Position numbers and translations under genes: made by a program | Part shown: one piece after another, positions 4,226 through 39,636 of the stretch | Layout: each line of letters opens with the position of its first letter | Numbering within the stretch: the stretch's first letter is position 1 | The notes under the pieces: generated by a model | What the model saw: only the letters and a program-made list of their open reading frames with translations | Database searches by the model: none | Told to the model about the DNA's origin: nothing | From: Candidatus Micrarchaeota archaeon | GTDB taxonomy: Archaea; Micrarchaeota; Micrarchaeia; Anstonellales; Bilamarchaeaceae | Reading direction: 5' to 3' | Length of the DNA stretch: 46,175 nucleotides | NCBI GenBank assembly: GCA_032123335.1 | Contig: JAQBFN010000007.1 | Location: 1 to 46,175, forward strand

Positions 4226-4273
4226 TCTTGAACTTCGTAGAAGTTCGAGAGAAGAAATCGAAGATTTCTCAGA
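4226..4273 (+). repeat. double-hairpin mini-element, copy A
   Basis: TCTTGAACTTC-gta-GAAGTTCGAGA GA AGAAATC-gaa-GATTTCT CAGA; same architecture as 13437-13478 and 39595-39636. Confidence 0.7.
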
Positions 4274-4343
4274 AGGCGAATCAGAGGCCCGTTCCATTAT
4301 TCTTTTAAACTTTCTTTGAGTGCCCACCCCGGGTGGGTTAGAA

Positions 4344-6224
4344 ATGCCTAAGGATCCTCAGCAATTGAAAATAGTCGCCAGAGTCAATCCTCCAGAGGCA
4401 AATAAGGAAATTGGCAAATCCTCGATACTGGTTGAGCCCAGGATGCGCACTGCCGGCTCCAGCACAATGAAAATGTACGGAATTGAGAGTGAAAGCCAGG
4501 GAATAACCCGGAAAAATGGCCGCACGTTCATAGAACTCGAAGCAATGTTCTACAATAAAGGAAAACTGGTCGAGTTCAGCCAGAGGGTTGACATCACAGA
4601 GCAGCTTGGGCTGGTCGATGGCATAAAGCCAGAAGACATAGAGCTTGTTTTCACGCTTGTTGATTCTGAAGGAAGATTCCTTTACATCTCCCAACAATAT
4701 GACAGGAATGTGGATAAGTATGCAAAGGAGAACCCGGAGAGCGGGATATTCTACAGGAAGGACCTGATTGGAAATCTCTTCCATGAACGAATAGAGGGAA
4801 CCGAGAAGGAAACCGCGATAAATGAATTCACCCAGCTGCTCGAGAAGGAGAATGTGATTTTCCACCAGCCCAACTTCACCCCCGCAGATGCGATGAAGCT
4901 GCAGTGCAAAAGCGACATAATTAATATCCCAAGGCTCTCCAGCACAATCAGTGACGGGAGTGAAAAGTATGTTTTTAGATTGCACATAAACCTTTCCGCG
5001 ATAAGCTGGATGGCATGGAAACAAGCAGAACTGATGAACCCCCATATGCTTCCGCACGAGAAGCCTATCCAGTTTATGGACCAGCTAATCAAGCAAATCA
5101 TCCTTACCGCAAAATTCAGGGTTTCCACCCCCAAGCAGATGTTCCTCCAGAATGACCTGGGGCAGATAGTCCTCTTTGGGGTTGTAGGAACGATTGCCGG
5201 TTCCGGAGAGCAAAGTGAACAAAATCCAGATTCGTCTGGGCAACATCAGCTTTCCCCCGCCCAGGCGCATGAGCCTCCCACTGAGTACAAGGGTGATGAT
5301 ATGCCTCCGGGAAGCACCCTTCCTGAAAGCAAGCCTCCAAAAACCAATCTCCATCACAAGAATGCACATTCAAAAGATTTCCTTCCAAGGGATGCCCCCT
5401 TCAAGCAGAAAGCATCCAAAAGAACCAAAAAAGAAGCAACTTCAGTTGCCATCCCCCTTCCCAAATTGAAAAAGCCGCTGCATCTGCTTAATGCCCCCGA
5501 AGGCATTATTCTGCAGGAATGCAGGGGGGTTGAGGCCTCCTTTCCCACAAGGAACAAATCAAACACCCCAACCAAAGAAGCCCTTGCTTTGAAGGAGGGC
5601 AGCTCCAGTGCAAAAGAGCAGGTGCTCCAGGAAACCCAAATACTGCTGGAGAACAAGATGAATCTCTCCACCCCCTCCGCAAAAGCAGCATCCACTTCAG
5701 AAAAAACGGCTGAAGACAACCCCCTGAAAGAATTTATAAATGAGAATATACATATTATTCAGCAGGATGGTAGGAGAGAAAATGCAAGAGATGAGCCTCA
5801 CGATTGTTCCTGTAGCGCACCTTTCCAGGAAGAGCGCAGAACTTGTGAGGAAGACGATAGAGCAGGAGAACCCCCAGCTTATAGGCCTGGAGCTGTGCAG
5901 GGAGAGGCTGGAGGGCCTGGTGAGAGGGGGCACCAGGACCATGGATCTCAACACAGTTTTGCGTCACCCCACATCCGCACTAATGTTCGTTGCGCAGCAG
6001 CTGCTGGGGAAGTGGTGGCATGTAAAGCCAGGAGCAGAAATGCTGGAGGCGCTAAGGACCGCAAGAGAAATGGAAAAGCCGGTCGCGCTGCTGGACAGGC
6101 CGATAGGGGTAACCGCAAGGGAGATAGAAAAGATTCCATTAAGGGAAAAATTCGGGATGGTGTTCTCGGGTGGCTTCAAGCCCTTCAAGGAAAAGATGAC
6201 TCTGAAAAAGCTGATGCAGCCTGA
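4344..6224 (+). CDS. hypothetical protein (globular N-terminal half, low-complexity C-terminal half; 3' end overlaps traB-like gene)
   Basis: Long ORF; ATG at 4344 downstream of TTTTAAAC (4303-4310); no recognisable family. Confidence 0.6.
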   Translation: MPKDPQQLKIVARVNPPEANKEIGKSSILVEPRMRTAGSSTMKMYGIESESQGITRKNGRTFIELEAMFYNKGKLVEFSQRVDITEQLGLVDGIKPEDIELVFTLVDSEGRFLYISQQYDRNVDKYAKENPESGIFYRKDLIGNLFHERIEGTEKETAINEFTQLLEKENVIFHQPNFTPADAMKLQCKSDIINIPRLSSTISDGSEKYVFRLHINLSAISWMAWKQAELMNPHMLPHEKPIQFMDQLIKQIILTAKFRVSTPKQMFLQNDLGQIVLFGVVGTIAGSGEQSEQNPDSSGQHQLSPAQAHEPPTEYKGDDMPPGSTLPESKPPKTNLHHKNAHSKDFLPRDAPFKQKASKRTKKEATSVAIPLPKLKKPLHLLNAPEGIILQECRGVEASFPTRNKSNTPTKEALALKEGSSSAKEQVLQETQILLENKMNLSTPSAKAASTSEKTAEDNPLKEFINENIHIIQQDGRRENARDEPHDCSCSAPFQEERRTCEEDDRAGEPPAYRPGAVQGEAGGPGERGHQDHGSQHSFASPHIRTNVRCAAAAGEVVACKARSRNAGGAKDRKRNGKAGRAAGQADRGNRKGDRKDSIKGKIRDGVLGWLQALQGKDDSEKADAA

Positions 6225-6435
6225 GAACCTCAACATTCTCCTCTCCAAGCTTGAAAAAGATTTTCCTGTTTCTTACAGTGTTTTCGTGGATTCCAGGAAC
6301 AAATACATGTTCATGAAGCTCCTTTCCCACAAGCCAGAAAGCGCAGTGGTGGTCGTAGGCGCTGCCCACGTTCCCGGACTGCAGAAACTCGCGGAAGAAT
6401 CCGAACAAAAAATAAATGTGAAAGTTGCAAGGTGA
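5782..6435 (+). CDS. TraB/GumN (TIKI-like) family protein
   Basis: VAHLS..S, GLELC..R, KPGAEM, ALLDRPI..T, RN.YM, VVVGAAHVPG motifs; TTTATAAA at 5733-5740; start uncertain (5767, 5782 or 5791). Confidence 0.88.
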   Translation: MQEMSLTIVPVAHLSRKSAELVRKTIEQENPQLIGLELCRERLEGLVRGGTRTMDLNTVLRHPTSALMFVAQQLLGKWWHVKPGAEMLEALRTAREMEKPVALLDRPIGVTAREIEKIPLREKFGMVFSGGFKPFKEKMTLKKLMQPENLNILLSKLEKDFPVSYSVFVDSRNKYMFMKLLSHKPESAVVVVGAAHVPGLQKLAEESEQKINVKVAR

Positions 6436-6439
6436 GCAA

Positions 6440-6691
6440 ATGGACATTGTTCTAAGGACAAAACCGGCAAACGTTTTCCTTTTCCTAAAGGGAAGGGATT
6501 CCGCCTACCTTTCTGAAATAGCAAAGGAAACCGGCACAACCTATGTGTACATAACACATTTTGTTTCAAGGCTCATGGAAAAAGGCCTTGTTTTAGTTGA
6601 ACCCAAAGGAAAAAAGAAAATGGTCAGGCTCACTGAAAAAGGAAGGGAGATTGCATCCCACCTGGAAGAAATAAGGAGGAACTCAGAATGA
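6440..6691 (+). CDS. MarR-like winged helix-turn-helix protein
   Basis: YLSEIAKETGTTYVYITHFVSRLMEKGLV...GKKKMVRLTEKG; SD GGTGA before ATG 6440. Confidence 0.85.
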   Translation: MDIVLRTKPANVFLFLKGRDSAYLSEIAKETGTTYVYITHFVSRLMEKGLVLVEPKGKKKMVRLTEKGREIASHLEEIRRNSE

Positions 6692-7296
6692 TTGAAGTAT
6701 TCAAAGGTGCATCAGCTCACCCAATACGGGGGGAAAGCGGAACAGTTGCAACAGGATACACAATCGGAAGCTTTGCAGTGGATGCCCCAGAAGGCGTAAA
6801 TTACCCCGGTTCCCCATTAATCCTGCTAACTCATGCACATTGCGACCACATCTGCGGATTATCCCTACACAACCATCCCTATGCATGCTCAGAATTCACC
6901 GCAAAAGCAATCACGGAAGTAACTGAAGGCGCAACCCTCTGCACACATTTAGGGTTCCAGCCCCCAAGAAGGCCTCCGCAGCAAATCCTGAAGGATGGCC
7001 AGGTTCTCCAGGGAGATGAATTCACAATAGAAGTACTCGCAACCCCAGGGCATTGCGAAGGCGCACTCTGCTTCTACGTTCCGGAGCTCAAAGCATTATT
7101 CTCAGGGGATACGGTATTCGGAGGAGGTGCCCTCCCTTCAGTGAGCCTTCCCACCAGTAACCCACAGGCCCTAATCAACTCATATGAAAAGCTCTCTTCC
7201 TATGAAATAGAAAAAATTTATCCAGGCCACGGAACCCCGTTCCCTGCAAAGGGCTACATCCGCGACCTGCTCCCAACTCTGAACGAATTCATATAA
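6688..7296 (+). CDS. MBL-fold metallo-hydrolase (glyoxalase II-like)
   Basis: THAHCDH, TPGH, LFSGD, PGHG motifs. Confidence 0.92.
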   Translation: MIEVFKGASAHPIRGESGTVATGYTIGSFAVDAPEGVNYPGSPLILLTHAHCDHICGLSLHNHPYACSEFTAKAITEVTEGATLCTHLGFQPPRRPPQQILKDGQVLQGDEFTIEVLATPGHCEGALCFYVPELKALFSGDTVFGGGALPSVSLPTSNPQALINSYEKLSSYEIEKIYPGHGTPFPAKGYIRDLLPTLNEFI

Positions 7297-7726
7297 TCCT
7301 GAGCTTCACGGTTTTGCCCGCCTGCTCAAGCACTTTATTGTAGTTGAGGTAATGTGCATATGCAGTAATCTTTATCGGGATTTCCCCGGGCTTTGTCATG
7401 CTGCCCCCATGTATGTTTATGGAGAAAGTTTTTTCCGCACCTGCATTCATCTCGCCCATCCTTTCCTCATGATGCTTTTGGCTGGAGCTCACATCAAATC
7501 CAAGCCTGTGCCCTTTAGGCAATTCCACATCAACGGAAACAAGGTGCTTCTGCCCTGAAGTGTTCTTCACGGTTATGCCCATCGCAACCTTTGAATCCTT
7601 GTGCGATTCCATCCTTAAAGAGCTGAATTTATGTGAAATCTTGAAAGGACTGGATCCCCTTGCAGGCATCTCCTCTGCTTCTCCAGGCTCTTCTCTTTTG
7701 CCGCTTAACCAATCAAACAGACCCAT
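7289..7726 (-). CDS. hypothetical beta-rich (Ig-like) protein
   Basis: MGLFDWLSGK start at 7726; alternating strand pattern; resembles 13039..13392. Confidence 0.7.
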   Translation of the reverse strand: MGLFDWLSGKREEPGEAEEMPARGSSPFKISHKFSSLRMESHKDSKVAMGITVKNTSGQKHLVSVDVELPKGHRLGFDVSSSQKHHEERMGEMNAGAEKTFSINIHGGSMTKPGEIPIKITAYAHYLNYNKVLEQAGKTVKLRII

Positions 7727-7952
7727 AATATCACGATAGAAAACTGTCAGGTTATGTTTAAAACGCTTTGCCCATCTCTCGAAGTAAAAACCACATAACC
7801 ACACCACTCAACCCTATAGCAGAAACATTTAAATACCTGTTACAGTTCAATAGAAAGTTGCGTATTTTGGGGAGGAACTGGTCGCCTTGCCAGCCAGCGC
7901 AGTTAAATGCGCTGGCCTAATTCTTTTTCCCGTTTCCCGCAGGTGAAAACTT

Positions 7953-8924
7953 ATGACGGAAATGCTTGAAATTGATGGCTCTTTTGGCGAAGGCGGTGGC
8001 CAAATTATCCGCACCTCCCTTTCACTTTCTGCGCTTACAGGCACTCCAATTAGTATAACTAATATAAGGGCGGGCAGGAGCCCCTCCGGCCTCAAGCCCC
8101 AGCACGTTGCAGGTGCACGTGCAGTGCGCTCAATCTGCAGGGGAACTTTGGAAGGTGCGGAGGAAGGCAGCAGCACACTCGAGTACACCCCAGCGAAGAT
8201 CGTTGGAGGAAAATACGACTTTAATATCGGAACCGCAGGTTCCACAATCCTCCTGGCCCAAACAATACTCCCCCTCCTCTTTGCTTCCTCCAAAAAGAGC
8301 ATGGTAACAATAACCGGAGGCACGGATGTGCCCAAAGCCCCCACCTATGATTATTTCAAGGAAATTTTCCTCCCTGCACTTTCCCTTTTTGAGTTGAATG
8401 CAAAATGCTTACTTGAAAAGGCAGGTCATTTCCCCCGTGGGGGCGGGCAGCTGACAATAGAAACCGAGCCAGGGAAGCCAAAACCGGTTTCATACTGGCC
8501 CAGGGAATCCGTATTCAAAGCCATTATCTCTATTTCCGGCCTTCCCCTAAGCATTGCAATGCGCGAGAAGAAAGTCCTCCTCAACAACCAAATCGAGCAA
8601 GTATACATAAGGGAACGGGATGCGCTTGACCCCGGAAACTCCCTCCTCCTGCACAGGGGATTAGTGGGAAGCTCAGTTCTCGGAAAGAAAGGCCTGCGTT
8701 CAGAACAGGTTTCCCAAAACGCAATAGATTCCCTAAAGGAAGAAGGGGATGTGGATGTTGACCACAATCTTGCGGACCAACTCCTCATTTACTCCGCACT
8801 TGCAGGAAAAACAAGCTTTAAAACTTCTCACATCTCAAAGCATACGGAAACCAACATGCACATAATAGAGAAATTCCTTGGGAAGCAGTTCTCTGTTGAT
8901 GGAAATGTTGTGACGGTGGAATAA
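7953..8924 (+). CDS. rtcA: RNA 3'-terminal phosphate cyclase
   Basis: IDGSFGEGGGQIIRTSLSLS, IRAGR..GLKPQH, GTAGS, GGTDV..AP, G.FPRGGG, DQLL, HTETN (catalytic His). Confidence 0.96.
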   Translation: MTEMLEIDGSFGEGGGQIIRTSLSLSALTGTPISITNIRAGRSPSGLKPQHVAGARAVRSICRGTLEGAEEGSSTLEYTPAKIVGGKYDFNIGTAGSTILLAQTILPLLFASSKKSMVTITGGTDVPKAPTYDYFKEIFLPALSLFELNAKCLLEKAGHFPRGGGQLTIETEPGKPKPVSYWPRESVFKAIISISGLPLSIAMREKKVLLNNQIEQVYIRERDALDPGNSLLLHRGLVGSSVLGKKGLRSEQVSQNAIDSLKEEGDVDVDHNLADQLLIYSALAGKTSFKTSHISKHTETNMHIIEKFLGKQFSVDGNVVTVE

Positions 8925-9547
8925 TGGTTGCAATGCTTGACAAGCCCGGACTTGCACTCACAATCATTTTCGGATTGGCTATTCTCCTCCTTGGGGATTT
9001 CTCCTATCTGGTGCTTGTTTTCATATTTCTGCTCCTTTCAATCATAGCTACCAAATATGGCTACCATGAAAAGAAGGAAATGGGCATATATGAGCACGAC
9101 CGGAGCTGGGAAAACGTGCTTTCCAACGGACTGGTCCCCACAATCGTAGTGGTGGCAGGTTATTTCCTGGGCTGGGGCCCAATCCCATACATATGCTCAA
9201 TAGCCGCAGTTACCTCAGATAAGTTCGCTTCGGAGCTCGGAGTCCTGGGGGGCGACCCTGTTTCCCTGGATGGATTCAAGCGAGTCAAAGCAGGGACCAG
9301 CGGTGCAGTAAGCAGCACAGGGACCCTTATGTCCCTTGCCGGCTCTGCAGCAGTGGGAATTGCAGCAATGTTTCTTTTCGGAATAACTCCCAGCACAGCA
9401 CTCCTTGTGACCCTTGCAGGATTTGCAGGCGGCCTGGTTGATACATTGTTTGGGGTGTTTGAAGAAAAAGGTTTCGGTACGAAAGGTACAACTAACATAA
9501 TATGCTCTATCGTAGGGGCATTGATTGGTTTAATGGTGATAGCATGA
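8924..9547 (+). CDS. DUF92/TMEM19 family membrane protein
   Basis: RSWENVLSNG, SDKFASELG, GTSGAVS..GT, DTLFG motifs; multiple TM segments. Confidence 0.9.
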   Translation: MVAMLDKPGLALTIIFGLAILLLGDFSYLVLVFIFLLLSIIATKYGYHEKKEMGIYEHDRSWENVLSNGLVPTIVVVAGYFLGWGPIPYICSIAAVTSDKFASELGVLGGDPVSLDGFKRVKAGTSGAVSSTGTLMSLAGSAAVGIAAMFLFGITPSTALLVTLAGFAGGLVDTLFGVFEEKGFGTKGTTNIICSIVGALIGLMVIA

Positions 9548-10284
9548 AAGCAGTAGTATTATGCGGAGGAGAAGGAACAAGGCTCAGGCCTTACACATAC
9601 ACAGTCCCAAAGCCCATGCTTTGGCTTGGGGGAAGGCATATCCTGGAATATGCAATTGAGCACCTCAGGAAGAGCGGAATAACCGACATCATCCTCTCAG
9701 TTGGATACCTCAAGGAACAGATAATGGATCATTTTGGGGACGGAAGCCAGTTTGGAGTGAACATTGAATATTTTGTAGAGGATGAAGCCCTCTCTACTGC
9801 AGGCGCGCTCTACCCGCACAAAAACAAGCTCAAGGATGAGAGATTTCTTGTATTCATGGGAGACCACGTAACAAACATAAACATCGAGAAGTTCATAAAA
9901 ACCCATGAAAAAACCGGGGCAATTGCAACAATTGCAGCAAAGAAAAAGAAAACCCCCCTGGAATACGGAGTAATTGAAGCAAACGAGAGATCCAAGATTG
10001 TAAAAAGCTTCCAGGAAAAGCCCGTAATGAATTACCTAATCAACACCGGGATGTACATTCTGGAGCCCAAGGCCCTGGATTACATAAAGCCCAGGGAAGA
10101 CTTTGCAAAGGATGTTTTCCCAAGAATGCTTGAAGCAAAGGAAAAGCTCGCAGTGTACAAGTTCAGCAGGGAATACTGGATAGATATCGGAAGGGTAAAA
10201 GACTACGAAAGAATGAGGGAACTCTTCAGCGTAATCGACCTTGCCCGTGACCTGTCCCCGCCCCTAGACACGTACGAAGAGTAG
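9544..10284 (+). CDS. sugar-1-phosphate nucleotidyltransferase (NTP_transferase family)
   Basis: MKAVVLCGGEGTRLRPYT..PKPM, INTGMY, WIDIG; ATGA coupling to DUF92. Confidence 0.92.
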   Translation: MKAVVLCGGEGTRLRPYTYTVPKPMLWLGGRHILEYAIEHLRKSGITDIILSVGYLKEQIMDHFGDGSQFGVNIEYFVEDEALSTAGALYPHKNKLKDERFLVFMGDHVTNINIEKFIKTHEKTGAIATIAAKKKKTPLEYGVIEANERSKIVKSFQEKPVMNYLINTGMYILEPKALDYIKPREDFAKDVFPRMLEAKEKLAVYKFSREYWIDIGRVKDYERMRELFSVIDLARDLSPPLDTYEE

Positions 10285-11253
10285 GATTACCCCTACTCCC
10301 ACAATCAGCTGCAGGAACATCATCACTAAAACTAATTGGTATTCTTCTATTCCCCCAGTGAGCTTCAGCACCAAATCAATGAGGCCCCTTGGCCTTCCCT
10401 TTGGAGCAACGAGTTTCCCATATTTCAGCCCCACAAATGTTTTTGGGAACTTATTGGGCAACTTAATCAGGAAGTCCAGCACATATAATGCAAGAATAAG
10501 TGCCCCTGCACTCTCCAGGTTCCCTATGATCACCCCGGTCGCAAGCACAGCCCCAATCATGAGGGTTCCCACATCCCCCGGGAAAACACTTGCAGGATAC
10601 CAGTTTTTTGGAAGGAACCCAAGCAATGCCCCCAGCATTGGAATAAATAGCACAAGCATTTCCGGTATTCCATGCACCCATGCAATTATGCTCAAGCAAG
10701 CAAACACAACAGCGCCCATTCCCGCTTCAAGCCCGTTGAATCCCGCAAGCATATTTGTAAGGTTTGAAGCAACCGCAATTCCCACAGGAAGCAGAATCAG
10801 GATATACAGAATCCCAAAATCCACCATCCCTATAAACGGAAGAACCATGGAAGTGCTTCCCGCAGCCTTCACCGCAATCAATGGAATCGCAGAAAGCAGG
10901 GGAATGAATGCCTTTGCCCACTGTGGAACATCAAGAATATCATCAAGTATCCCGATAAACGCAAGCGTCTGTATCGTAAGCAGCCCCGCAAGCACAAAAA
11001 CAATATTGAAACTAAGCCCACTGAACGTGCTCAGCATAATCGCAAGCAATATCCCCGCAGAGAAGCCCACAACAATTGAAATCCCCCCCATCTCCGCAAC
11101 TTCAGGATGGTGGGCCTTGTGCATGTCCTTCCCAACAAACCCAAACCTCTTCAGCCTGGGAACAAGCGCCATGGAAAACGCATAGCTGGTCCCTATTGAA
11201 ACCAGGAAAATGGCAAGATACGCAAAAATCTCATTCTCAAAAATTGAAAGCAA
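10264..11253 (-). CDS. polyprenyl-phosphate GlcNAc-1-phosphate transferase (GT4 MraY/AglH/GPT-like)
   Basis: GKDMHK..VAEMGG, GILDD, NMLAGFNGLEAG, VFPGDVG; about 10 TM segments. Confidence 0.92.
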   Translation of the reverse strand: MLSIFENEIFAYLAIFLVSIGTSYAFSMALVPRLKRFGFVGKDMHKAHHPEVAEMGGISIVVGFSAGILLAIMLSTFSGLSFNIVFVLAGLLTIQTLAFIGILDDILDVPQWAKAFIPLLSAIPLIAVKAAGSTSMVLPFIGMVDFGILYILILLPVGIAVASNLTNMLAGFNGLEAGMGAVVFACLSIIAWVHGIPEMLVLFIPMLGALLGFLPKNWYPASVFPGDVGTLMIGAVLATGVIIGNLESAGALILALYVLDFLIKLPNKFPKTFVGLKYGKLVAPKGRPRGLIDLVLKLTGGIEEYQLVLVMMFLQLIVGVGVILLFVRV

Positions 11254-12510: not shown

Positions 12511-12535
12511 TTTAACCCAAAAACCTTTATTAATA

Positions 12536-12976
12536 CTATTTTTCCACAGAATCCAGCGCTTTTCCTATGTTCCCGAAGGCCTCATCAAATTCCTTCTCGT
12601 AAATCCTCCTGATTGCTTCCCGCAGCTTCTCCTTGTCCTTGGAGATAAAGTACTGCCCCTTCTCCCTCTGGATAAGCCCCATTCCAGCAAGCCTCTGCAT
12701 ATGGTAATACACTGTTTTCTCAGAAACAGAATCCTTCCTCTTCTTGCTCACCTTCTCGTAAATCTCTTTAGTGGTGGGCCTCTTCCCATGCGAAAACTCC
12801 TTCAGCAGCACATCCAGCACATCAATCACAATAGTCCTGCTTTCATTCGGTGAAATCAACCCCAAAGAAAGCGCAATCCAGCGCACAAGGGATTTGCGGG
12901 TAAGCCTCACATCATCTGTAAGCGCCATGTTTCGCACTACAAGCTCCCGCTTAATCAGCTCAGCCTCCGGAATCAT
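12536..12976 (-). CDS. winged-helix (ArsR-like) DNA-binding protein
   Basis: TTKEIYEKV...VSEKTVYYHMQRLAGMGLIQREKGQY. Confidence 0.75.
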   Translation of the reverse strand: MIPEAELIKRELVVRNMALTDDVRLTRKSLVRWIALSLGLISPNESRTIVIDVLDVLLKEFSHGKRPTTKEIYEKVSKKRKDSVSEKTVYYHMQRLAGMGLIQREKGQYFISKDKEKLREAIRRIYEKEFDEAFGNIGKALDSVEK

Positions 12977-13038
12977 CGAAATCTATTCACCCACAACAAT
13001 TAAATTCCTTAGTCACACCATATTCTATAGGTGGGCAA

Positions 13039-13392: not shown

Positions 13393-13415
13393 TCAGCAGC
13401 AGAAGACAAAGGAGT

Positions 13416-13521
13416 AGCGTAACGCGGGCCATGTTTTCTTGAGCTCTGCTCAAGAGAAGCGACATAATGTCGCTAAGATTATAAAATTTTTACGGCAGCT
13501 TAAAACAACAGAAAAAAATTT
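13416..13521. repeat. tRNA 3'-trailer repeat, copy 1 (interrupted by 42-nt element)
   Basis: With 13437-13478 removed, 57 of 64 nt match 13688-13751. Confidence 0.9.
13437..13478 (+). mobile_element. double-hairpin mini-element, copy B (insertion relative to empty site)
   Basis: TCTTGAGC-tct-GCTCAAGA GA AGCGACA-taa-TGTCGCT AAGA; absent from paralogous repeat 13688-13751. Confidence 0.65.
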
Positions 13522-13596
13522 TAGCGGGAGATGGATTTGAACCATCGACCTCCGGGTTATGAGCCCGGCGGGAACTCCAGACTCCCCTATCCCGCT
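13522..13596 (-). tRNA. initiator tRNA-Met (CAT)
   Basis: Reverse complement AGCGGGA...CCGGG-CT CAT AA-CCCGG...TCCCGCT-A; A1-U72 and three G-C pairs in the anticodon stem are archaeal initiator features. Confidence 0.95.
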
Positions 13597-13687
13597 GCAT
13601 TATGTTTAAGGAGTTGCTATTGTTAAAGTCCATTCGTCTTTATAAATATACCCAATGGATTCGTTTCTCCCGTAAAACAAAAAGACC

Positions 13688-13751
13688 AGCGTAACACGGG
13701 TTATGTTTTTATAAAATTTTTACGACAGCGTAAACCAGCAGAAAAAAATTT
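13688..13751. repeat. tRNA 3'-trailer repeat, copy 2 (empty site)
   Basis: agcgtaacacgggttatgttt-ttataaaatttttacgacagcgtaaaccagcagaaaaaaattt abuts the tRNA-Ala 3' end. Confidence 0.9.
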
Positions 13752-13911
13752 TGGACTTAGGGGGATTCGCACCCCCGGCCTCTCGCGTTCTAGCAGGCAA
13801 TCCTTTATCCAACGTTGCTGGAGGGAGCGCACGGGGGGGTGCGCAGGTAGCAACGTTGTAGGACGGACAGCCTGTTGCAAGGCGAGCGCTCTACTGCTGA
13901 GCTATAAGCCC
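13752..13911 (-). tRNA. tRNA-Ala (TGC) with 88-nt intron at 37/38 (13788-13875)
   Basis: Acceptor GGGCTTA/TAAGTCC-A with G3-U70; anticodon arm CTCGC-CT TGC A^C-GCGAG; BHB CTTG/CTAG (one U-U) with bulges CAA and AAC; 72-nt mature form. Confidence 0.92.
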
Positions 13912-13977
13912 TTAATGCCTCAAATTGACTCTTTTGAAGTTTGAAAATAATGAGGCGAAATACTTAAAAGCTAAGCT

Positions 13978-25988: not shown

Positions 25989-25996
25989 TCCAAGCC

Positions 25997-29120: not shown

Positions 29121-29160
29121 ACAGTGCTTATTACGTTTTGAAAAGTTATAAACCTTCGGT

Positions 29161-29925: not shown

Positions 29926-30028
29926 CTTTTAGGTTTTGGAGGGCAAGATTTTTGTATTCTTTGCCTTTTTTCTCAGAAGAGGCGCAAACCCAAACGATTT
30001 TTATACCTTTTTATCTCCAATATAGTCC

Positions 30029-33000: not shown

Positions 33001-34009
33001 AGCCCCCATAGACGATTATGTATTGCTAAGGGGCGCAGTTGAAGAGCAGGAAGTAATAATGAAAGCAAGGTGGGTCCCAGTCGCTGGCCAGATAAACAAT
33101 GATACTGAAAAGACAATAACGGTCTATGACTTTGCCCAGACCGACCAGACCGAATTCCTTGAAATGATTCTCGGAAGCCTTCCAGTGGCGGCCGATCCGG
33201 TAGAATACAGCCTTTACTTTGACATTTACGGGCTCTTTGCAGTTCGTGAGCCGGTGCAGCCAGGCGGAGGGGATGGGAAGCCGGACTATGTATGCGAAGA
33301 GGATGTAGACTGCCCTGAATGCTACTACTGCAGCATCGACAACAACGCGTGCCTCCCCAAGAGTGATGTTGAATGCGGAGTCCCGGGAACCGGATGCTCA
33401 AATGGTTATGAGTGTGTGGCATGCGAGTGTGTCAAAGAAGCAGAACCTCCCGAAGAAGAGTGCGAAATTGACAACGATTGCCCGGGCAACGAGTACTGCG
33501 ATGATGGGGAATGCATGCTTGTTCCGTGCGATTGCGGAGAAGTAAAAGACCACGAATGCATCGCGCACCCGTGCTGCTCAAACGATGACTGCGATGCAGG
33601 CCTTGTATGCAAGGACAACAAGTGCGTAGAGGCAGAAGCGGAATGCACTGACTGCGATGAGCCAATTGCAGAGGCTGAAAACCTTATTAAAGATGCAAAA
33701 GAGAAGGGACTTGATACCTCCGTAGCTGAGAGGCTCCTTGCAGATGCAAAGGAAGCAAAGGCGAACGGAGACTGCGAGGAAGCACTCAAGTTTGCAAATG
33801 CTGCCCTTGCAGCTGCGGAAGACCTGTTTGGTGAAGAAGTCACATTCCCGCCGGTCATCTCAACCGAAGTGCCTTCAGTTGAATCGCCACAGCAGCCAAA
33901 CGGAACTGAAGTATCAGACTGGCAGCAGGATATCGCCTGGATAATCCTCATTATCCTGGGTCTTGCACTTGTAGGCTTCTGGTGGTTCAGGAACTATTAC
34001 GGGAAATAG
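30029..34009 (+). CDS. large cell-surface protein (parallel beta-helix, Cys-rich repeats, C-terminal TM anchor)
   Basis: Signal peptide; PG.Y.LT.D and LDCDGHTITG NosD-like start; Asn/Gly beta-helix repeats; many C..D.DC repeats; C-terminal WIILIILGLALVGFWWF. Confidence 0.85.
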   Translation: MVRNLLVFLVLMGFVFSILPPVVATVDYCQVINAPGEYTLTKDLTGVNGTNSYCIRIEVGDVMLDCDGHTITGTGTGEGVNIKNSYQPNVTVQNCNISQYNYAIYGDLVWNGSILDNDLYDSNNNNLYISGSYNNIEGNLIHTSGAGQDGAVVNGDSNTFTGNEFYGNGYGGLELNGENNHIEDNEAHDNGGSGFNVDGSLNEFIGNTAYGNDWEYFEGAGFESDGANTFDDNTAYDNTNGFYLVGPLPEPVARRIPVFGNTFTNNWAHGNLVGLNFIDNNGTYTDNTLEENYEADMLMGGDAWLGVIPLGSDALRGASIDFTLICDNTVERNTGSGARPIYYSGETVTLNGGTYSEVLLCNAVNSVITGVTVDGSNTLNNNGMLLFLSNGTKISDSKSQNNFMGFGFVRSSDATLSNSNSDGSGFGVFSMQTMNLAIDGLTSNNNRMNATIILDILMGFLGGGPLAGEVTLRAPAPEINELGAGAVLIQSPRATITDSTFSGSTFGLALMMSDEATISGGSAHTNDVFGYGLLDSYNVNFESFALAYNNAGDIHDIFIGTVPPAYEMLEFLPFGVGVLDISLGMILEPVTARGEPLRALTTCWSYNQCGLDRGMICNFDTQTCEEGIFENTYSNMRVYNNHYGMVLFNLGHELVDGCRVYDNHVFGLLDASDPVSFMPLSAIVLEPNVESVTIRNSYFYRNGEQMFSVLSELYEEGDKPAWAEAFALFDSVIPTGVLELEIIEASYFNSMILPLTALEYAGEWKLEETTVGTGASSVRMSLDDNATAIYLVHDTTLPTVNSIHMESEDLGVNMTIYLDIDDTFVGPRSSYNNKYFTIAALTESVVLAAPVSPTIEKFIVHYSPSGGYDPETMGLYYLQIREIVPYCEEDIECDRGQVCSQNTCITPECYTDEDCPPVVAADAPQEYCVDYMCVYCRDDADCAGGEDCSRCMNGKCKQNACLGDVDCLEGCECEANLCSLPRIASADGSCGAPIDDYVLLRGAVEEQEVIMKARWVPVAGQINNDTEKTITVYDFAQTDQTEFLEMILGSLPVAADPVEYSLYFDIYGLFAVREPVQPGGGDGKPDYVCEEDVDCPECYYCSIDNNACLPKSDVECGVPGTGCSNGYECVACECVKEAEPPEEECEIDNDCPGNEYCDDGECMLVPCDCGEVKDHECIAHPCCSNDDCDAGLVCKDNKCVEAEAECTDCDEPIAEAENLIKDAKEKGLDTSVAERLLADAKEAKANGDCEEALKFANAALAAAEDLFGEEVTFPPVISTEVPSVESPQQPNGTEVSDWQQDIAWIILIILGLALVGFWWFRNYYGK

Positions 34010-34098
34010 CATTTCCCCCTTCTTTTTCTCTTTTTATCCACCCCCCAGCTTTAGCCAGCATTTAAATTTTTTGGCTTTGATACGCAATAGGTGGTTTG

Positions 34099-34518
34099 AT
34101 GAAAAACAAGTTACTCGCAATCCTATTTGGAATTATCTGAGTGATATTTGTAGTCGCTTGCCTGTATGTAGGGGTGACCTATCTCGGCTTCATAGGAAAA
34201 GCCCTGATTGAGTTCTTTAGCGCCGGGAACATCCAGTCAATGAACGAATGCGGAATTACAACCCCGCAGGAATTCGTAGACATAAGGAACGCGCTCCCGA
34301 CAACGCTGCTTCCGGCAATTTACATTGGAATCCCGGTCTCGCTTATCCTGATTTCAGCACTGATGTTCTTCAGCGGCTATTTCTTCGGGAAGCACACGGT
34401 AATAGAAGACCTGGATTCCCACGTAAGGCGCGAAGAGGAGATAGAGAGTGAGGTGCAGAAGCGCACCGGCGGCAAGAAGGAAAAGCACGAGAAAAAGGAA
34501 ACAAAGGGAAAGAAATAA
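34099..34518 (+). pseudogene. two-TM membrane protein gene interrupted by an in-frame TGA (34138-34140)
   Basis: SD AGGTGG plus ATG 34099 gives MKNKLLAILFGII*VIFVVACLYVG..., continuous with ORF 34141..34518. Confidence 0.6.
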
Positions 34519-34555
34519 GAGGAGGAATAACCCTCCCTTTAATTTTCTTTATTCT

Positions 34556-35218
34556 TCAAGTCTGCTCAACACAGGTTTTATCCGCCACAATCTTCCCCAC
34601 ATAATACCGGTTCTCTTTCTCAGGAATCCATTCAAGGCAGGTTTTTCCATCCCAGTCAAGTGTCTTGCACTTGTACTCAGATGTGAAAGTCCCTGTATCG
34701 CCAGTATCAGCATAAATCACTAAATCTTCAGGAGCATTTGGCACAGTTATCCTGAGCTTTGCCAGCTGGCTGTGGGTCCAGGAGGGCTTCTCCCCGCACT
34801 CTTCGCATTCCGCATCAAGCGCAATATCCTCCACAAGCACCGTTGCACCGGAAGGAAGGCTCAGGGTTTCCCCAATCTCAACCTCCTCCCCATATACTAC
34901 CTGCTTGTCCCCTTCATCGTCACAGTAGTTAGAATCCTCAGTGCAGATTGCAATCTCCACCTGCCCTGTAAGCGTTATGGGAACGCAAACAATCGGCTCC
35001 ACCTCAGGCTCTTCTTCCAGTGTTTCATTCTGCCCTTCTTCTGCAGGAGCCTCTTCTTCAGCAACAGGCTCCCCCCCAGGCTCTGCAACCGTCTCGTTCT
35101 CCGGATGCACTTCCTGAGGCTCTCCAGGAGTTTCAGCTGCTGTGGGGGCTTCTTCAGAAGGGCAACCAAAAGAAAACAAAAGCACCAACCCAAGGAACAT
35201 GAAAATCATTTTGTTCAT
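34556..35218 (-). CDS. acidic lipoprotein, hypothetical
   Basis: LFSFGC lipobox, Glu/Pro-rich linker, Cys-containing C-terminal domain. Confidence 0.8.
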   Translation of the reverse strand: MNKMIFMFLGLVLLFSFGCPSEEAPTAAETPGEPQEVHPENETVAEPGGEPVAEEEAPAEEGQNETLEEEPEVEPIVCVPITLTGQVEIAICTEDSNYCDDEGDKQVVYGEEVEIGETLSLPSGATVLVEDIALDAECEECGEKPSWTHSQLAKLRITVPNAPEDLVIYADTGDTGTFTSEYKCKTLDWDGKTCLEWIPEKENRYYVGKIVADKTCVEQT

Positions 35219-35257
35219 GGAATGGTTAGTTCTTGGAAAATTATTTAAAGAAAACCC

Positions 35258-35524
35258 TCATTTCTTCCCCTTCTTATTGAAGAAGCTCTTGGTCATATGT
35301 AGAATCCAGCCCCAGTGAAGCACGATGTGCAGGAGCACCAGCAGGGCCATCACCACCCCGCTAAAATCATGCAATGGAGTGATCACATCGAATGGAAGGC
35401 TTTTGTAGTTCATCCCAAGGTTCTGCACCAATCCGGGCATCTTGAGTATCCCGGTAACTGCCACACAAAGAAACGAGATAAATAAACCTAAATCAATAAT
35501 GTAATTTACTGTGGCCCGGTTCAT
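35258..35524 (-). CDS. DUF4405 family small membrane protein
   Basis: NY.ID..L......TG, LHD.SG....LV.LH..LHW.W motif. Confidence 0.85.
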   Translation of the reverse strand: MNRATVNYIIDLGLFISFLCVAVTGILKMPGLVQNLGMNYKSLPFDVITPLHDFSGVVMALLVLLHIVLHWGWILHMTKSFFNKKGKK

Positions 35525-35558
35525 GCTCGTATAACTAAGAAAAGGTTTATTAGAGAAG

Positions 35559-35630
35559 CGCTCTGGCCGGGAATTGAACCCGGGTCGTCGACTCGACAGG
35601 CCGAAATGCTAACCACTACACCACCAAAGC
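35559..35630 (-). tRNA. tRNA-Asp (GTC)
   Basis: Reverse complement GCTTTGG...TCGGC-CT GTC GA-GTCGA...GGTTCAATTCC...CCAGAGC-G. Confidence 0.95.
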
Positions 35631-35684
35631 AAAGGGATGACTTCTATTTATTTTACATAATCTTAATAAAGCTGCCGTCTTCTC

Positions 35685-36782
35685 TCAGGATAACAGGTAT
35701 GTGCTTGCCATATACAGGAACAGCAGGAACAGCACAATCCCGGAAAGAAGATGAATCAGCTTTATGTACTTTTCTTTTGCTTCCCCAACTTTTTCTACAG
35801 TTGTATAGCCGAAGTAAACTGCCCCCGAGATAATAACCATGGGGAGCACAAAAATCACATTATAGAGCAAAAGATAGAATATCGCATTCAGGGTAACCGC
35901 CTTGGAAATAATCGCCAAAATCACCAGGTACGGCCCGGAGGAGCAGGGCAAAAGGAAAAGCGAGCAGAATAGTGCAGCAAGAGCAACTCCCGGAATTGAA
36001 GTGGCTCCCTCAATTGCCTTTTTTGCATGGGGCCTAATGAACATTGGCATCTCAACCGCAAAGAACCCGGGGTGGTAGCTCAGGTACGCGTTAATCTCCA
36101 TTATGGAAAGTATCAGAAGCCCAACCGTTGCTGCACTGAAGAAGAAGTTAGTAAGCTCAGGATTTCCCATAACATGCAGTATTCCAAGCCCCAGCAGGAT
36201 ATAGCAGATAAATATTACGAATATGAACGTCAAAGCTGCAAGGAGCATCTTCTTCCGCCCCTCTGAAATAAGGATAAGGCTCAGCATCATCACCATAACT
36301 GCAATTGTGCAGGGATTCAATGAGTCCACAAGTGCAGCAGCCACAAGCCCCCAAATTGTAAGCGCCTGGAACTCATCTGTTTCCTCAATGGGGCTGACAT
36401 CGGGTTCATATTCCGAGTCTATTGTGTTTTTTGTGAATACCCCTTCAGGACACTCCCCGTCAAGGCAGTCATCCAGCAGGTTTCTCCACTGCTCTTCGGT
36501 AAGCTCCCCTATTATCAGCGCTTTTCCATCAACAAGCAGGGTGGGCACCCCACCTTTGTTAGGGTCCTGCCCGAATTCCGTGTATGCCTCGAACATTTCT
36601 GCCCGGTTTTCTGCATTTGAGGAAACTTCCTTTTCTATAAGTTCGATTTCATATTCGCTGCCCAGCTCAACCAAAAGGGCCTTTGTGCTCGCGCAATGCG
36701 GGCAGGTGGAGCCATAATAATCAATAACCTGAATGGCAAAAACACTTGAAAGCAGCAAAAGCGCAAACAGGATTCTTTTCAT
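35685..36782 (-). CDS. exported glutaredoxin-like domain fused to CcdA/DsbD-like membrane domain
   Basis: Signal peptide, CPHC, GVPT; then DSLNPC and LPCSSGPY transmembrane Cys pair. Confidence 0.85.
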   Translation of the reverse strand: MKRILFALLLLSSVFAIQVIDYYGSTCPHCASTKALLVELGSEYEIELIEKEVSSNAENRAEMFEAYTEFGQDPNKGGVPTLLVDGKALIIGELTEEQWRNLLDDCLDGECPEGVFTKNTIDSEYEPDVSPIEETDEFQALTIWGLVAAALVDSLNPCTIAVMVMMLSLILISEGRKKMLLAALTFIFVIFICYILLGLGILHVMGNPELTNFFFSAATVGLLILSIMEINAYLSYHPGFFAVEMPMFIRPHAKKAIEGATSIPGVALAALFCSLFLLPCSSGPYLVILAIISKAVTLNAIFYLLLYNVIFVLPMVIISGAVYFGYTTVEKVGEAKEKYIKLIHLLSGIVLFLLFLYMASTYLLS

Positions 36783-36845
36783 CTTTCTCACTTCATATTC
36801 AATATTTAAAAAATTACTTCTTCTCTATGGCACTATCCGTTGTAT

Positions 36846-36941
36846 TCCCTCCAGTGTGATTTGAACACACGACCTGTCGGTTTCTGCTATTAAGCAGATA
36901 TCAAGCTACAGCCGACCGCTCTACCACTGAGCTATGGAGGG
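36846..36941 (-). tRNA. tRNA-Tyr (GTA) with 24-nt intron at 37/38 (36882-36905)
   Basis: C1-G72 acceptor CCCTCCA/TGGAGGG-A; GTCGG-CT GTA G^A-CCGAC; relaxed BHB helix CTGT/GCAG. Confidence 0.93.
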
Positions 36942-36979
36942 TTCGTGGAGAGATTAAAAGTAAAAAAGAATTTAAAAGG

Positions 36980-38608
36980 CTATCTCATTGTTCCAAGGAG
37001 GAACTTCTCAAGCTCAACCGGCTGCCAAACTTCCACTGCCTTTATCGCGAAATCCAGCTTTGCCTCGCTTTCCGCATATATATCGAAGAGAACATCTCCT
37101 TCCTTTACCTTGTCCCCCTTCAAACGGTGCAGGTAAATCCCTGCCCCCTTGTCCCGCGGGGCGCCCGCAGCCCTTGCAATCTTGCTCACCCCTTTATTGT
37201 CTATATGGCTGATTTTTCCGCTCTTTTCTGCAGTTATTGTGTGCTTGTACTGCCCAATCGGAAGGTCATCCTCCTTTATGTTCGGATTCCCGCCCTGCAG
37301 CTCAATAATCTCCTTCATTTTTCCCCATGCTTTTCCATTGGTGAGCATGAGTTCCGCAATGTCCCTTCCCTGCCCCTCGGGCACCTTTCCCACGAGCTCC
37401 AACAGCCTTCCCGCAATAAGCGTGCTCTTGTTCCTCAGGTCGTCCGGGCCCTTGCCCTGGAGCACTTCCATTACATCCTTGCATTCCAGCGCACACCCTA
37501 TTCCATTGCCCACCGGCTCTGCGCCATCCGTAATGAGGCTCTCCATGGTCATTCCGAGCCTCTTCCCAATCTTGATGAAGTCTGCACCCAGGGCTTCAGC
37601 CTTTGGCATATCCAGCACCTTTGCGCCCCTTCCAATGGGGATATCGATTACCACGTATTTCGCCCCAACCGCGCTCTTTTTCGCGAGTATGGATGCAAGC
37701 AGCATGCCTCTTGGGTCCAGGCTCATCGGGTGCCTCAGCTTAATGAGCTTGTCATCCGCAGCCGCAATGTTGGTTCCCCCTCCCCAAACCATCGCGCCCT
37801 TGCACTTGAGCACAATCTCCTTGAGCTCATGTATATTGAAATCAACATCCGCAAACACTTCCATAGTGTCTGAGGTTCCGGCAGCAGAGGTAATTGCGCG
37901 TGAGGAAGTTTTGGGCATATATATTCCTGAAGCTGCAATTATCGGAGTCACAACCATTGTGGTGCGGTTTCCCGCAACTCCCCCAATGCAGTGCTTGTCT
38001 GCCACAGGCCCTACTCCAATGTCCAGCTTTTCACCTGAATCCACAATCGCATTTGTAAGCGCAACCGTTTCATCCTCCCCAATCCCCCGGATATATACGG
38101 CCGCAATAAATGAAGAAAGCTCTGCCTCAGAAAGCCGGTTCCTCATGAGCTCATGCACCACAGTGTAAATCTGCTTGCTGGTGAGGCTCTCCCCATCCAG
38201 CTTCATTTTTATAAAATCCAGGCTTGCGGGCCTTTCCATGTGCTTTATGTGCAGAAGGTCCCCATCCTTCAGTTTCAGCTTGTCAGCAACATCCCTGAAA
38301 ATCCCGATTTCCCCCTTTTTCACCATCTCGCTGCTCAGGTCCACGATTGAAACTATCTCTTTGGAATCATAGTGCAGGTTCACCCTGTACCCATTATAAA
38401 TATCGTTCTCTTCCGCATCTTCCTCATTCAGCACAACAACATTCCTCCCGGTTTTAATGTCGATAAGCTTTACCTGGCAGATGCACTTTTTCTTTTCCCA
38501 GAGCTCCTTTTTCTTTTCCCTCTTCTCTTTTTCTTCCTGGCTCAGCACCATATCCTGGGTATTGTTCTTTATTTTTTCATTAACGCTAACCGGCTCCATT
38601 TTATTCAC
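36980..38608 (-). CDS. deoA: AMP phosphorylase
   Basis: Extra N-terminal beta domain; DKHCIGGVAGNRTT, PKTSSRAITSAAGT.D.ME, SILAKK, AGAP.DKGAG; start 38608 or 38599. Confidence 0.93.
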   Translation of the reverse strand: MNKMEPVSVNEKIKNNTQDMVLSQEEKEKREKKKELWEKKKCICQVKLIDIKTGRNVVVLNEEDAEENDIYNGYRVNLHYDSKEIVSIVDLSSEMVKKGEIGIFRDVADKLKLKDGDLLHIKHMERPASLDFIKMKLDGESLTSKQIYTVVHELMRNRLSEAELSSFIAAVYIRGIGEDETVALTNAIVDSGEKLDIGVGPVADKHCIGGVAGNRTTMVVTPIIAASGIYMPKTSSRAITSAAGTSDTMEVFADVDFNIHELKEIVLKCKGAMVWGGGTNIAAADDKLIKLRHPMSLDPRGMLLASILAKKSAVGAKYVVIDIPIGRGAKVLDMPKAEALGADFIKIGKRLGMTMESLITDGAEPVGNGIGCALECKDVMEVLQGKGPDDLRNKSTLIAGRLLELVGKVPEGQGRDIAELMLTNGKAWGKMKEIIELQGGNPNIKEDDLPIGQYKHTITAEKSGKISHIDNKGVSKIARAAGAPRDKGAGIYLHRLKGDKVKEGDVLFDIYAESEAKLDFAIKAVEVWQPVELEKFLLGTMR

Positions 38609-39530
38609 CTTTATCTATCTTCTGTTTTGCAATCCCTGAAAGCGAGGAAGGGGAAACTACCCCCAGCTCAGTGATGTACCCGCTTATGTACCTTGCAGCA
38701 GTCACATCGAATGCAGGATTGGATACCTTCACCTTCTTTGGCGCATTTTCCCAAACCTCTTTTGGGTTCCGCTCCTCAATCTTCTCCCTCACCCCGTACA
38801 GGGTAAGCGGGTCATACTTGTATGTTTCCGCGCATGAGAAAAATGAAACATCATAATCTTTTGCAAGATGGGCAAGCGCCCTTGTCCCCACCTTATTAAT
38901 CAAATCTCCAGTCGAGTTAATCGCATCCGCGCCCACGAGCACAATATCCGCTTTCTTGAGGTATTTTGCAACCCCCATGTCCACAGTAATGGTTACATCA
39001 ACCCCTGCGCGCGCAAGCTCAGCCGCAGTAATCCTTCCCTGGTACCTCGGCCTGGTTTCGCACGCAACCACAGTGAGCTTCTTCCCCCGCTTGTGCGCCT
39101 CCATAATCACCCCGGTAACCGTGCTTGAATGGCAGTGCGTAACTACCGTCATCCCGTCGACCAGAAGGGTCGCCCCGTAATCCTTCAGCTTCCCAATGTC
39201 TTCTTTCATCCGCTTAAGGTATTCATTTTCGCTCTTGATTACCGATTCCTTGAACTTCTTCAGGCTGTTCGTCTTAGTAGTTGCAATCTCAGAAGTAACG
39301 AATGCAATAGTTTCGTCCAGGTAATTCCTGAGCATCGGTTCGGTGGGGCGCGCCCCGGAAACCTTGAGCACCGCCTTCACAACATCAGCCTTTACTCCAT
39401 TTACAGTAGTTGCTTTGGAATCCTCAACCGCATACATTATCGCGCGCACACCCGCCTTTGCGACATTCCGCGCTCCCTGAATCTTAAGAGATTTAATATC
39501 TTTAACAGTCTGATCCACACGGCGGCTCAT
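38601..39530 (-). CDS. ribose-1,5-bisphosphate isomerase (eIF-2B family)
   Basis: IK.LKIQGA, RPTEP, THCHSSTV (catalytic Cys), ETRP.YQG, VGAD, NKVGT, NPAFDVT; coupled to AMP phosphorylase. Confidence 0.88.
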   Translation of the reverse strand: MSRRVDQTVKDIKSLKIQGARNVAKAGVRAIMYAVEDSKATTVNGVKADVVKAVLKVSGARPTEPMLRNYLDETIAFVTSEIATTKTNSLKKFKESVIKSENEYLKRMKEDIGKLKDYGATLLVDGMTVVTHCHSSTVTGVIMEAHKRGKKLTVVACETRPRYQGRITAAELARAGVDVTITVDMGVAKYLKKADIVLVGADAINSTGDLINKVGTRALAHLAKDYDVSFFSCAETYKYDPLTLYGVREKIEERNPKEVWENAPKKVKVSNPAFDVTAARYISGYITELGVVSPSSLSGIAKQKIDKGE

Positions 39531-39594
39531 GCAAACCAATCAGAAATGAGGTATAAATAGCTTTTGTTATTGATTGGAAATTGTAAATGCAATT

Positions 39595-39636
39595 TCTGTG
39601 TGGCTTTCCGCCACATCTCTCCAGGCAAGCTGGAGA
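39595..39636 (-). repeat. double-hairpin mini-element, copy C
   Basis: Reverse complement TCTCCAG-cttgc-CTGGAGA GA TGTGGC-ggaaa-GCCACA CAGA. Confidence 0.65.

Follow-up and report, generated by a model that had tools for sequence, protein, structure and literature searches.

The window analyzed here, a contig of 46,175 bases from a micrarchaeon of the DPANN group, carries three copies of a short element, usually 42 nucleotides (nt) long, that consists of two hairpins and short purine linkers and nothing else. This element is probably a non-autonomous mobile DNA element that depends on a mover acting in trans, and the features described below point to movement as a single strand. Three observations carry this reading: the element inserts as an exact unit without target duplication, it lies in one orientation relative to its preferred target, and its pairing is conserved while its sequence drifts. 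The window is the whole of contig C7 of the genome under study (G000; 1,037,606 bases in 54 contigs, 87% complete, 48% G+C). The seven other genomes of the genus are denoted G001 to G007, contigs are denoted by C and retrieved loci by L, each with a number, and the genomes of the genus that were searched are 81 to 95% complete.

Architecture, copy number, and covariation

The consensus of the element is T-[hairpin 1]-GA-[hairpin 2]-NRGA, with a hairpin 1 of 7 to 8 base pairs (bp) and fairly conserved sequence (TSKTGARC..GYTCAMSA) and a hairpin 2 of 7 bp and a 3-nt loop, the sequence of which is free. Among 90 distinct copies, the first base is T in 85, followed by C or G, T or G, and T, and the last two bases are GA in all 90. 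Copy A of the window (positions 4226 to 4273, plus strand; 48 nt; 56.1 bits with the covariance model introduced below) exceeds the usual length because its hairpin 1 comprises 11 bp, including one G-T pair; then come GA, hairpin 2 (17 nt, GAA loop), and the tail, CAGA. Copies B (13437 to 13478, plus strand; 57.9 bits) and C (39595 to 39636, minus strand; 54.2 bits) are 42 nt long, copy C having a hairpin 1 of 7 bp and a hairpin 2 of 6 bp with a 5-nt loop. For all three copies, the two-hairpin structure is both the minimum-energy and the centroid fold of the single-stranded DNA, with z-scores of -2.9, -6.3, and -5.1 for A, B, and C, respectively (200 shuffles each). A preliminary description, made from the letters of the window alone, had given the sequences and coordinates of these copies exactly, and the common length of B and C to which it drew attention is the modal length of the element (39 of 67 copies from relatives). 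At C1:51296-51400 of G000 and at L123 (G007), the element takes a variant form: an extra stretch of about 37 nt enlarges the hairpin 1 loop, and the 5' part is partially duplicated in tandem.

The preliminary description had cast the three copies as a grammar (TCT, hairpin 1, AGA, GA, a hairpin 2 of exactly 17 nt, and C or A followed by AGA). Coded literally, this grammar retrieves nine distinct loci from G000, the three in the window and six elsewhere, versus none in any of 100 whole-genome shuffles that preserve dinucleotides, so that the comparison with shuffled DNA on which the proposal had been staked came out in its favor. The covariance-model scan that had also been proposed extends the count: model R1, built from 23 copies, yields 26 strong matches in G000 at E <= 5e-8 (37 are listed at E <= 1), including the three in the window, with the best matches reaching E = 1e-14. 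The grammar was defined post hoc from three short, AG-rich stretches, which speaks for a chance or low-complexity pattern, but these counts and scores refute it. Paired palindromic operators for a protein that binds double-stranded DNA would be expected to keep their sequence, whereas hairpin 2 keeps its pairing only. We regard the probability of either explanation as negligible.

Changes on both sides of a pair occur at all 15 base pairs of the 23-copy alignment. Pairing is retained in 98.8% of its 345 cells, compared to 76% in shuffles and 30 to 48% with slid partners, and none of 500 shuffles reaches 98.8%; these seed copies were picked through a hairpin filter. In 63 distinct copies from four other genomes, for which the alignment was fitted to the R1 model, 97.2% of 931 cells are paired. 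The claim that the stems vary yet stay paired is borne out by these values. Cells with G-T outnumber those with A-C (17 versus 6). The sequence-only profile (nhmmer) found 22 copies in G000 at E <= 5.6e-6 and missed copy C; some copies therefore escape sequence search, as had been anticipated. Conversely, a structure-only scan for adjacent hairpin pairs returned 579 loci and gave no discrimination without the sequence parts of the pattern. On the whole, the original observation is confirmed and was understated.

Matches to R1 are present in all seven other genomes of the genus (3, 7, 15, 15, 21, 22, and 49 copies), in six of 17 other genomes of the family (1 to 3 each), and in one of 16 genomes from other families of the order. 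The copies outside the genus are genuine: hairpin 1 and the GA linker are retained, as are the C-N-G-A tail and a second hairpin of 7 bp closed by a GAA loop, with hairpin 2 sequences that are entirely different. Searching the named genome records for the hairpin-1 pattern returned 30 stretches, 25 of these in metagenome-assembled genomes of Candidatus Micrarchaeota/Micrarchaeia and five scattered among unrelated organisms. A metagenome scan gave 33 stretches, 25 with full-strength R1 matches, and a scan of viral contigs with the hairpin-1 pattern gave none. Several R1 matches lie within about 100 bases of a contig start. Near-identical copies, one base apart, occur in unrelated flanks of different genomes. 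A copy borne by a TnpB element and common to G000 and G004 differs between the two genomes by two loop changes and one compensatory change from a C-G to an A-T pair, and the structure is thus retained over long times. Taken together, the covariation of the stems, the replacement of the hairpin 2 sequence between genera, and the presence or absence of exactly 42 nt described below match the preliminary notion of a tiny element kept by its shape and resembling repetitive extragenic palindromes (REPs) or miniature transposable elements with inverted repeats (MITEs).

Filled sites, empty sites, and target preference

At five kinds of site, filled and empty states differ by exactly 42 nt (T...GA), without target duplication. 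Copy B interrupts a conserved block (13414 to 13521, plus strand) that adjoins the 3' end of a tRNA-Met gene (13522 to 13596, minus strand). Once the 42 nt are taken out, three T's on the left and two on the right join into the run of five seen in the empty block. Eight uninterrupted paralogs of this block were found in G000 (C42, C33, C45, C1, C7, C54, C15, and C27). The one in the window (13684 to 13752, plus strand) adjoins an intron-bearing tRNA gene (13752 to 13911), and its insertion point would lie between 13708 and 13709. The block is a repeated landing site of the element. At an orthologous locus in a related metagenome, contig L165 is 91% identical to C42 of G000 over 3.2 kb on one side and 88% identical over 1.7 kb on the other, and holds a 42-nt copy exactly at the empty C42 site, and L164 holds a nested pair of copies where C15 of G000 is empty. 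The block itself is about 70 nt long, stands at the 3' end of a tRNA wherever checked, and combines a TTTTTATAAAA motif with a long A/T run; it may be a terminator or a promoter.

A second kind of site is a repeat that we denoted X, which is uninterrupted in contigs C43, C48, and C3 of G000. In C28, exactly 42 nt stand between ...caaactg and gggagg..., with unambiguous boundaries (T...A) and no duplication, and in C22 the same site holds a copy with a second copy inside it. Repeat X is GC-rich, measures 58 nt, and consists of two hairpins (GAGGGTC..GACCCTC, then GGGAGGGGG..CCCCCTCC, then GCGGTTCGG), with near-identical copies at C43:6826-6883, C48:12989-13047, and C3:3918-3974 and part of a copy at C20:13326-13359.

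The element is also found within coding sequence, a location that the preliminary description had suggested looking for. In a G000 gene read as pyrB on the strength of its translation and of a pyrI-like gene next in line, 42 nt are inserted in frame, which places 14 additional residues (MLSSAQQKKPKVSK) ahead of the final five. The insert is missing from the orthologs in G005 (95% identical), G007, and G003, which end in KKMLKG, KKMIKG, and KKALEG, respectively. This case argues against the filled and empty states having arisen solely by homologous exchange between repeats. At the same 3' site of pyrB, G001 (L186) and G002 (L187) carry an 18-nt in-frame remnant that forms hairpin 1 only and could be the product of a partial deletion or of the insertion of half an element; G005, the closest relative, has neither the full element nor the remnant.

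A TnpB insertion sequence has a further copy, at C9:3786-3830, in the loop of a hairpin close to its right end, and a paralog of this insertion sequence in C39 (82% identical over 1,246 nt) has a plain hairpin without a copy. TnpB-only insertion sequences with open reading frames (ORFs) of about 400 amino acids (aa) are located in G000 at C9:2542-3860 and C39:3965-5240 and also in C44 near 12136. In the C9 element and its G004 homologs (L105 and L106), the 42-nt element stands in the right-end hairpin, the expected location of the guide RNA.

Copy C lies inside the second hairpin of a composite block of about 106 nt (39566 to 39671, minus strand), between the stop codon of a 427-aa ORF and the promoter region of an IF-2B-family (PF01008) gene (38601 to 39539). 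The whole 106-nt block is absent from the orthologous intergenic regions of G002 (L043) and G003 (L048), which have the same upstream gene. Presence/absence polymorphism, the lack of which had been named as grounds for abandoning the proposal, is seen at both paralogous and orthologous sites. The host sequence of copy C was denoted module M and comprises two AT-rich hairpins (GGACAAATTT..AAATTTGTCC, GCTT, and TAGGAATT..AATTCCTA, then ATCAA). Besides 39566 to 39671 of the window, module M was found in G000 at C45 (about 960 to 1040), in C38, at C1:41780-41910, and at C9:900-1000; it is either intact (C45 and C38) or has the 42-nt element in the loop of either hairpin, and neither G002 nor G003 has the module at the orthologous loci. 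The machinery that moves the 42-nt element might also act on modules M and X.

Of the 90 copies, 59 have A as the base before the element and 43 have G at position -3; no one fixed insertion motif emerges, with clear insertions also after TTT and CTG. Flanks pair over at least 6 bp in 24 of 90 copies, compared to 8% for mismatched flanks taken from different copies, and the usual layout is a stem, GAA or GGA, the element, and the other arm of the stem. Eleven copies lie within the hairpin 2 of another copy; without exception, they share the orientation of the outer copy and directly follow the third loop base (GAA or GGA). Seven further copies, copy A among them, lie in hairpins that stand alone, are built alike, and precede CWGAG or TYAAC. 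The host hairpin of copy A consists of the 5' arm ATTCGCC with the first two loop bases, GA (4217 to 4225, plus strand), and the last loop base, A, with the 3' arm GGCGAAT and a CAGA tail (4274 to 4285, plus strand). Hairpins of this type also bear copies in C54 and C13 of G000 and at L139 and L120, and the uninterrupted form is present at L044 (ATTTGCC AAA GGCAAAT CTGA).

Nesting of copies in other hairpins gives rise to the apparent outer stem and to the look of a three-way junction. The preliminary description had suggested that the 5' TCT could alternatively pair with the terminal AGA, an idea that the comparison of copies does not support: G is found at position 3 in 25 of 90 and at position 2 in nine, the tail A-G-A is constant (82, 90, and 90 of 90), and the first three bases covary instead with their partners in hairpin 1. 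The three-way junction was accordingly rejected as a fold of the element itself, being an effect of insertion into other hairpins.

The same covariation bears on the suggestion that the element is a mobile mini-intron, removed by the archaeal splicing endonuclease and spreading by reverse splicing. Splicing would render insertions into hairpin loops and coding sequence harmless, and splicing endonucleases of relaxed specificity occur in ultrasmall archaea. The required TCT/AGA central helix is, however, contradicted by the covariation of hairpin 1, and, as worked out by hand, a bulge-helix-bulge is impossible, the 3-nt GRA directly after the outer helix at the 5' junction being on the wrong side. 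A canonical archaeal bulge-helix-bulge intron, with two 3-nt bulges and a 4-bp helix between them, was rejected on the same manual examination of the geometry. An intron thus appears very improbable.

Relative to neighboring genes (crude ORF calls), the 26 copies in G000 are about six sense, six to seven antisense, seven convergent, and two divergent; 24 lie outside long ORFs and two at ORF 3' ends. Six of the 26 are within 90 nt of a called tRNA gene, and the two tandem copies in C28 adjoin a sequence that reads as a further tRNA. The location just downstream of gene or tRNA 3' ends, noted at the outset, thus applies to copies A, B, and C and not as a general rule. A structured RNA motif, such as a stabilizer in the 3' untranslated region, a terminator, a processing signal, or a small RNA, spread by duplication of intergenic modules, would be in line with this proximity to tRNAs, with the strong covariation and the excess of G-U over A-C pairs, with the RNA-stable loop types (GAA, CUUG, and GNRA), and with the paired stems of old copies. 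The preliminary description had allowed for such an RNA signal, which is a poor fit: a cis-acting RNA motif should keep one orientation, and therefore the mixed orientation relative to flanking genes argues against this role, as do the exact 42-nt insertions into unique sequence, including the pyrB coding frame, and the copies nested in copies. In Rfam scans, only tRNAs were detected in the window at gathering thresholds, and permissive scans of eight loci and of window positions 4100 to 4400 gave only far sub-threshold matches. Moreover, an RNA role acquired after insertion is conceivable but would leave the origin of the copies unexplained. We therefore consider an RNA element improbable.

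Among the surroundings of the copies in the window, the 634-aa ORF after copy A is not conserved in the genus, with only two partial matches among its seven other genomes. The window encodes archaeal genes for HMG-CoA reductase and an IF-2B-family protein and intron-bearing tRNAs. Two tRNA genes on the minus strand (13752 to 13911, 160 nt, and 36846 to 36941, 96 nt) matched Rfam, were both missed by ARAGORN, and presumably contain long or multiple introns. At 36980 to 39539 (minus strand), genes with glycosyl-transferase family 3 (nucleoside-phosphorylase-type) domains adjoin the gene with the IF-2B family domain, a pair that we take for the AMP phosphorylase and ribose-1,5-bisphosphate isomerase genes of the AMP pathway in archaea.

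Proposed mechanism and the search for the mover

Given the excess of G-T over A-C pairs and the common orientation of nested copies, one particular strand appears to be folded and recognized, and recognition of one strand together with the lack of target duplication is as expected from a single-strand cut-and-join mechanism. Under such a mechanism, the element would move as single-stranded DNA. A nuclease-ligase acting in trans would recognize hairpin 1 by sequence and shape, and hairpin 2 would serve as a spacer defined by shape only, bringing the invariant GA tail back to the base of hairpin 1, where the two ends could be cut together. The element would then be joined 3' of an exposed purine-A. 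It would prefer the GRA triloop of hairpins with a 7-bp stem and then a CWGA tail, a build that its own hairpin 2 has, hence the nesting. Effects on the host, such as RNA hairpins in transcripts and the 14 extra residues of PyrB, would be secondary.

Several points weigh against this reading, beginning with features of the element itself. IS608-type TnpA uses guide tetranucleotides, for which there is no room here, given that the cut sites abut the hairpins. No pair among 25 compared G000 copies is at least 95% identical; therefore, recent activity in G000 is not demonstrated. The paired stems of diverged copies could reflect selection in place for a host or RNA function rather than mobility alone. 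The target is not one motif, insertions also being found in a T-run (between ATGTTT and TT), after AAACTG, and after CTTTCTT, and the T-run site of the tRNA-flank block is not predicted to be a hairpin loop and shows no significant fold. For this reason, a target that is always a hairpin loop was dropped: the hairpin loop is a preference, not a rule. Finally, single-stranded DNA, excision, and circular forms are inferred.

The remaining points concern the mover. The preliminary description had considered an HUH (histidine-hydrophobic-histidine) nuclease akin to TnpA or to the tyrosine transposases associated with REPs (RAYTs), a part of the proposal that found no backing: Y1_Tnp (PF01797) has no match in G000, which is 87% complete, and within the genus is confined to two of eight genomes, G003 (three element copies) and G007 (22 copies), the richest genome, G004 (49 copies), being without a match. 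The best tblastn match of the G003 and G007 TnpA proteins against G000 and the retrieved loci has E = 0.6. Nor are transposase genes flanked by copies, as had been envisaged; no copy lies within about 1.5 kb of the Y1_Tnp genes of G003 and G007, and the best R1 match near these genes (10.4 bits, E = 0.09) is insignificant. The hairpins of the IS200-type TnpA element of G007 are GC-rich and unrelated to the element. The IS110-type DEDD family is absent from all five genomes searched, and a resolvase-type serine recombinase occurs in one of the five, which is not G000.

Other candidate families were likewise without a link to the element. Tyrosine recombinases gave 1, 0, 4, 3, and 3 matches in G000, G004, G007, G002, and G003, respectively, and reverse transcriptase was found in two of the five genomes; the RVT_1 genes, at C26:64-483 of G000 and C32:33890-34318 of G002, may be part of a diversity-generating retroelement. 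The Y2 profile matched none of the five genomes and is uninformative, as its control also matched nowhere. The genes between paired copies in C13 and C1 of G000, named by eye, encode ACT-domain-like, TFB-like, and glutamate-decarboxylase-like proteins, with no nuclease candidate among them. Transposase genes often fail to assemble, and with genomes of 81 to 95% completeness, the absence of the mover is unproven. An HUH-type single-strand nuclease would remain the most likely kind of mover, at a confidence somewhat short of even.

A narrower form of the mobile-element reading holds that the element is a miniature of an IS200/IS605 insertion sequence, of the palindrome-associated transposable element (PATE) type, moved by a Y1 TnpA that acts in trans and comes from elsewhere in the population. 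An element with neither target duplication nor terminal inverted repeats, with hairpins at both ends, and with strand-specific insertion by a purine motif is compatible with this origin; TnpB-only insertion sequences, which need TnpA in trans, are present in all eight genomes of the genus, in seven above the family cut-off, and Y1_Tnp genes do exist in two of the eight. However, the ends of the G000 TnpB elements show no likeness to hairpin 1 or hairpin 2, and the same holds for the hairpins of the G007 TnpA element. The TnpB-borne copy was inserted into its host element and does not form one of its ends, and copy number does not track the presence of TnpA. Furthermore, the two hairpins of the 42-nt element are unlike, in contrast to the similar hairpins found at IS608-type ends. 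These disparities make such a derivation doubtful.

Significance and comparison with known systems

The mobile nature of the element, an archaeal, shape-kept, REP-like or hairpin-ended mini-element, is well supported. REP-type hairpin repeats and their nucleases are regarded as bacterial, and the element would extend mobile DNA of this kind to DPANN archaea. It points to a further single-strand DNA enzyme, a mover for which our searches named no gene, and one 42-mer offers a very small, well-defined substrate for finding it. Annotation is affected as well: the element breaks assemblies, alters the C-terminus of PyrB, and sits in the guide-RNA region of TnpB elements, and standard MITE finders would not report it because they rely on inverted repeats and duplications. 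It is a tentative possibility that the element is the archaeal counterpart of the REPIN-RAYT system (REPINs being the paired form of REPs), run by an enzyme not recognizable as a Y1 transposase, which could be a nuclease-ligase of a new kind acting on single strands or an enzyme recruited from the host. If so, a substrate of 42 nt, defined almost wholly by its shape, would rank with the smallest self-contained transposable units that we know of, and the use of its own second hairpin as a landing site would generate nested, fractal-like hairpin arrays.

No description of such an element was found in the literature on Micrarchaeota and DPANN archaea, a search that did not cover the supplementary MITE lists of PMC11602168, and the portions of the main text of that article considered here contain none. 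The literature on Archaea and REP elements likewise yielded nothing on an archaeal REP. The nearest analogs are the bacterial REPs and REPINs and the mini-elements of IS200/IS605, and the element fails defining tests of both.

Like REPs and REPINs, the element is a very short (20- to 40-nt class), high-copy, mostly extragenic hairpin repeat that keeps its shape, has no terminal inverted repeats and no target duplications, and persists across related species at very different copy numbers. REPs are also reported to lie within small palindromes, and those of some species within ORFs in frame (PMC3733652). In contrast to REPs, the host is an archaeon; the GTAG/CGTC head is lacking, the element starting with T (85 of 90) and ending in NRGA; and two unlike hairpins stand in direct tandem, versus one hairpin or an inverted pair in REPs and REPINs. 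A RAYT-like gene was not found, with none in G000 and unflanked Y1 genes in two of the eight genus genomes, which are 81 to 95% complete. A survey of Y1 enzymes reports only the IS200-type subclass 1.1 from Archaea (PMC6006769).

With IS200/IS605 elements and PATEs, the element shares hairpins at both ends without inverted terminal repeats or target duplication, orientation-specific insertion by a short motif, and a preference for DNA able to be single-stranded. PATEs are some hundreds of nucleotides long, in contrast to the 42 nt of the element. Its ends, moreover, are unrelated to the insertion sequence copies of these genomes, and no full-length element with matching ends was found. It also differs in that the cut sites touch the feet of the hairpins and the target is largely defined by shape (the GRA triloop). 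Classical, DDE-derived MITEs differ in both of their hallmarks: the ends of the element (TCTTG... and ...CAGA) are not inverted repeats, and there is no duplication at five kinds of site. Rickettsia palindromic elements (RPEs) are about 100 to 150 bp long, are bacterial, and are unrelated to the element in sequence. In passages of PMC3733652, RPEs are described in frame inside functional protein genes, as is the case for the copy in pyrB. Some resemblance extends to larger systems. The HUH Rep proteins of rolling-circle plasmids and circular single-stranded DNA viruses recognize shape and cut within a hairpin loop. Rep origins and integron attC sites belong to much larger units, in contrast to a self-contained 42-nt insert, and no Rep or IntI gene is linked to the element, but they share with it a folded single strand recognized by its shape, and the hairpin loop that Rep proteins cut corresponds to the landing place of the element.

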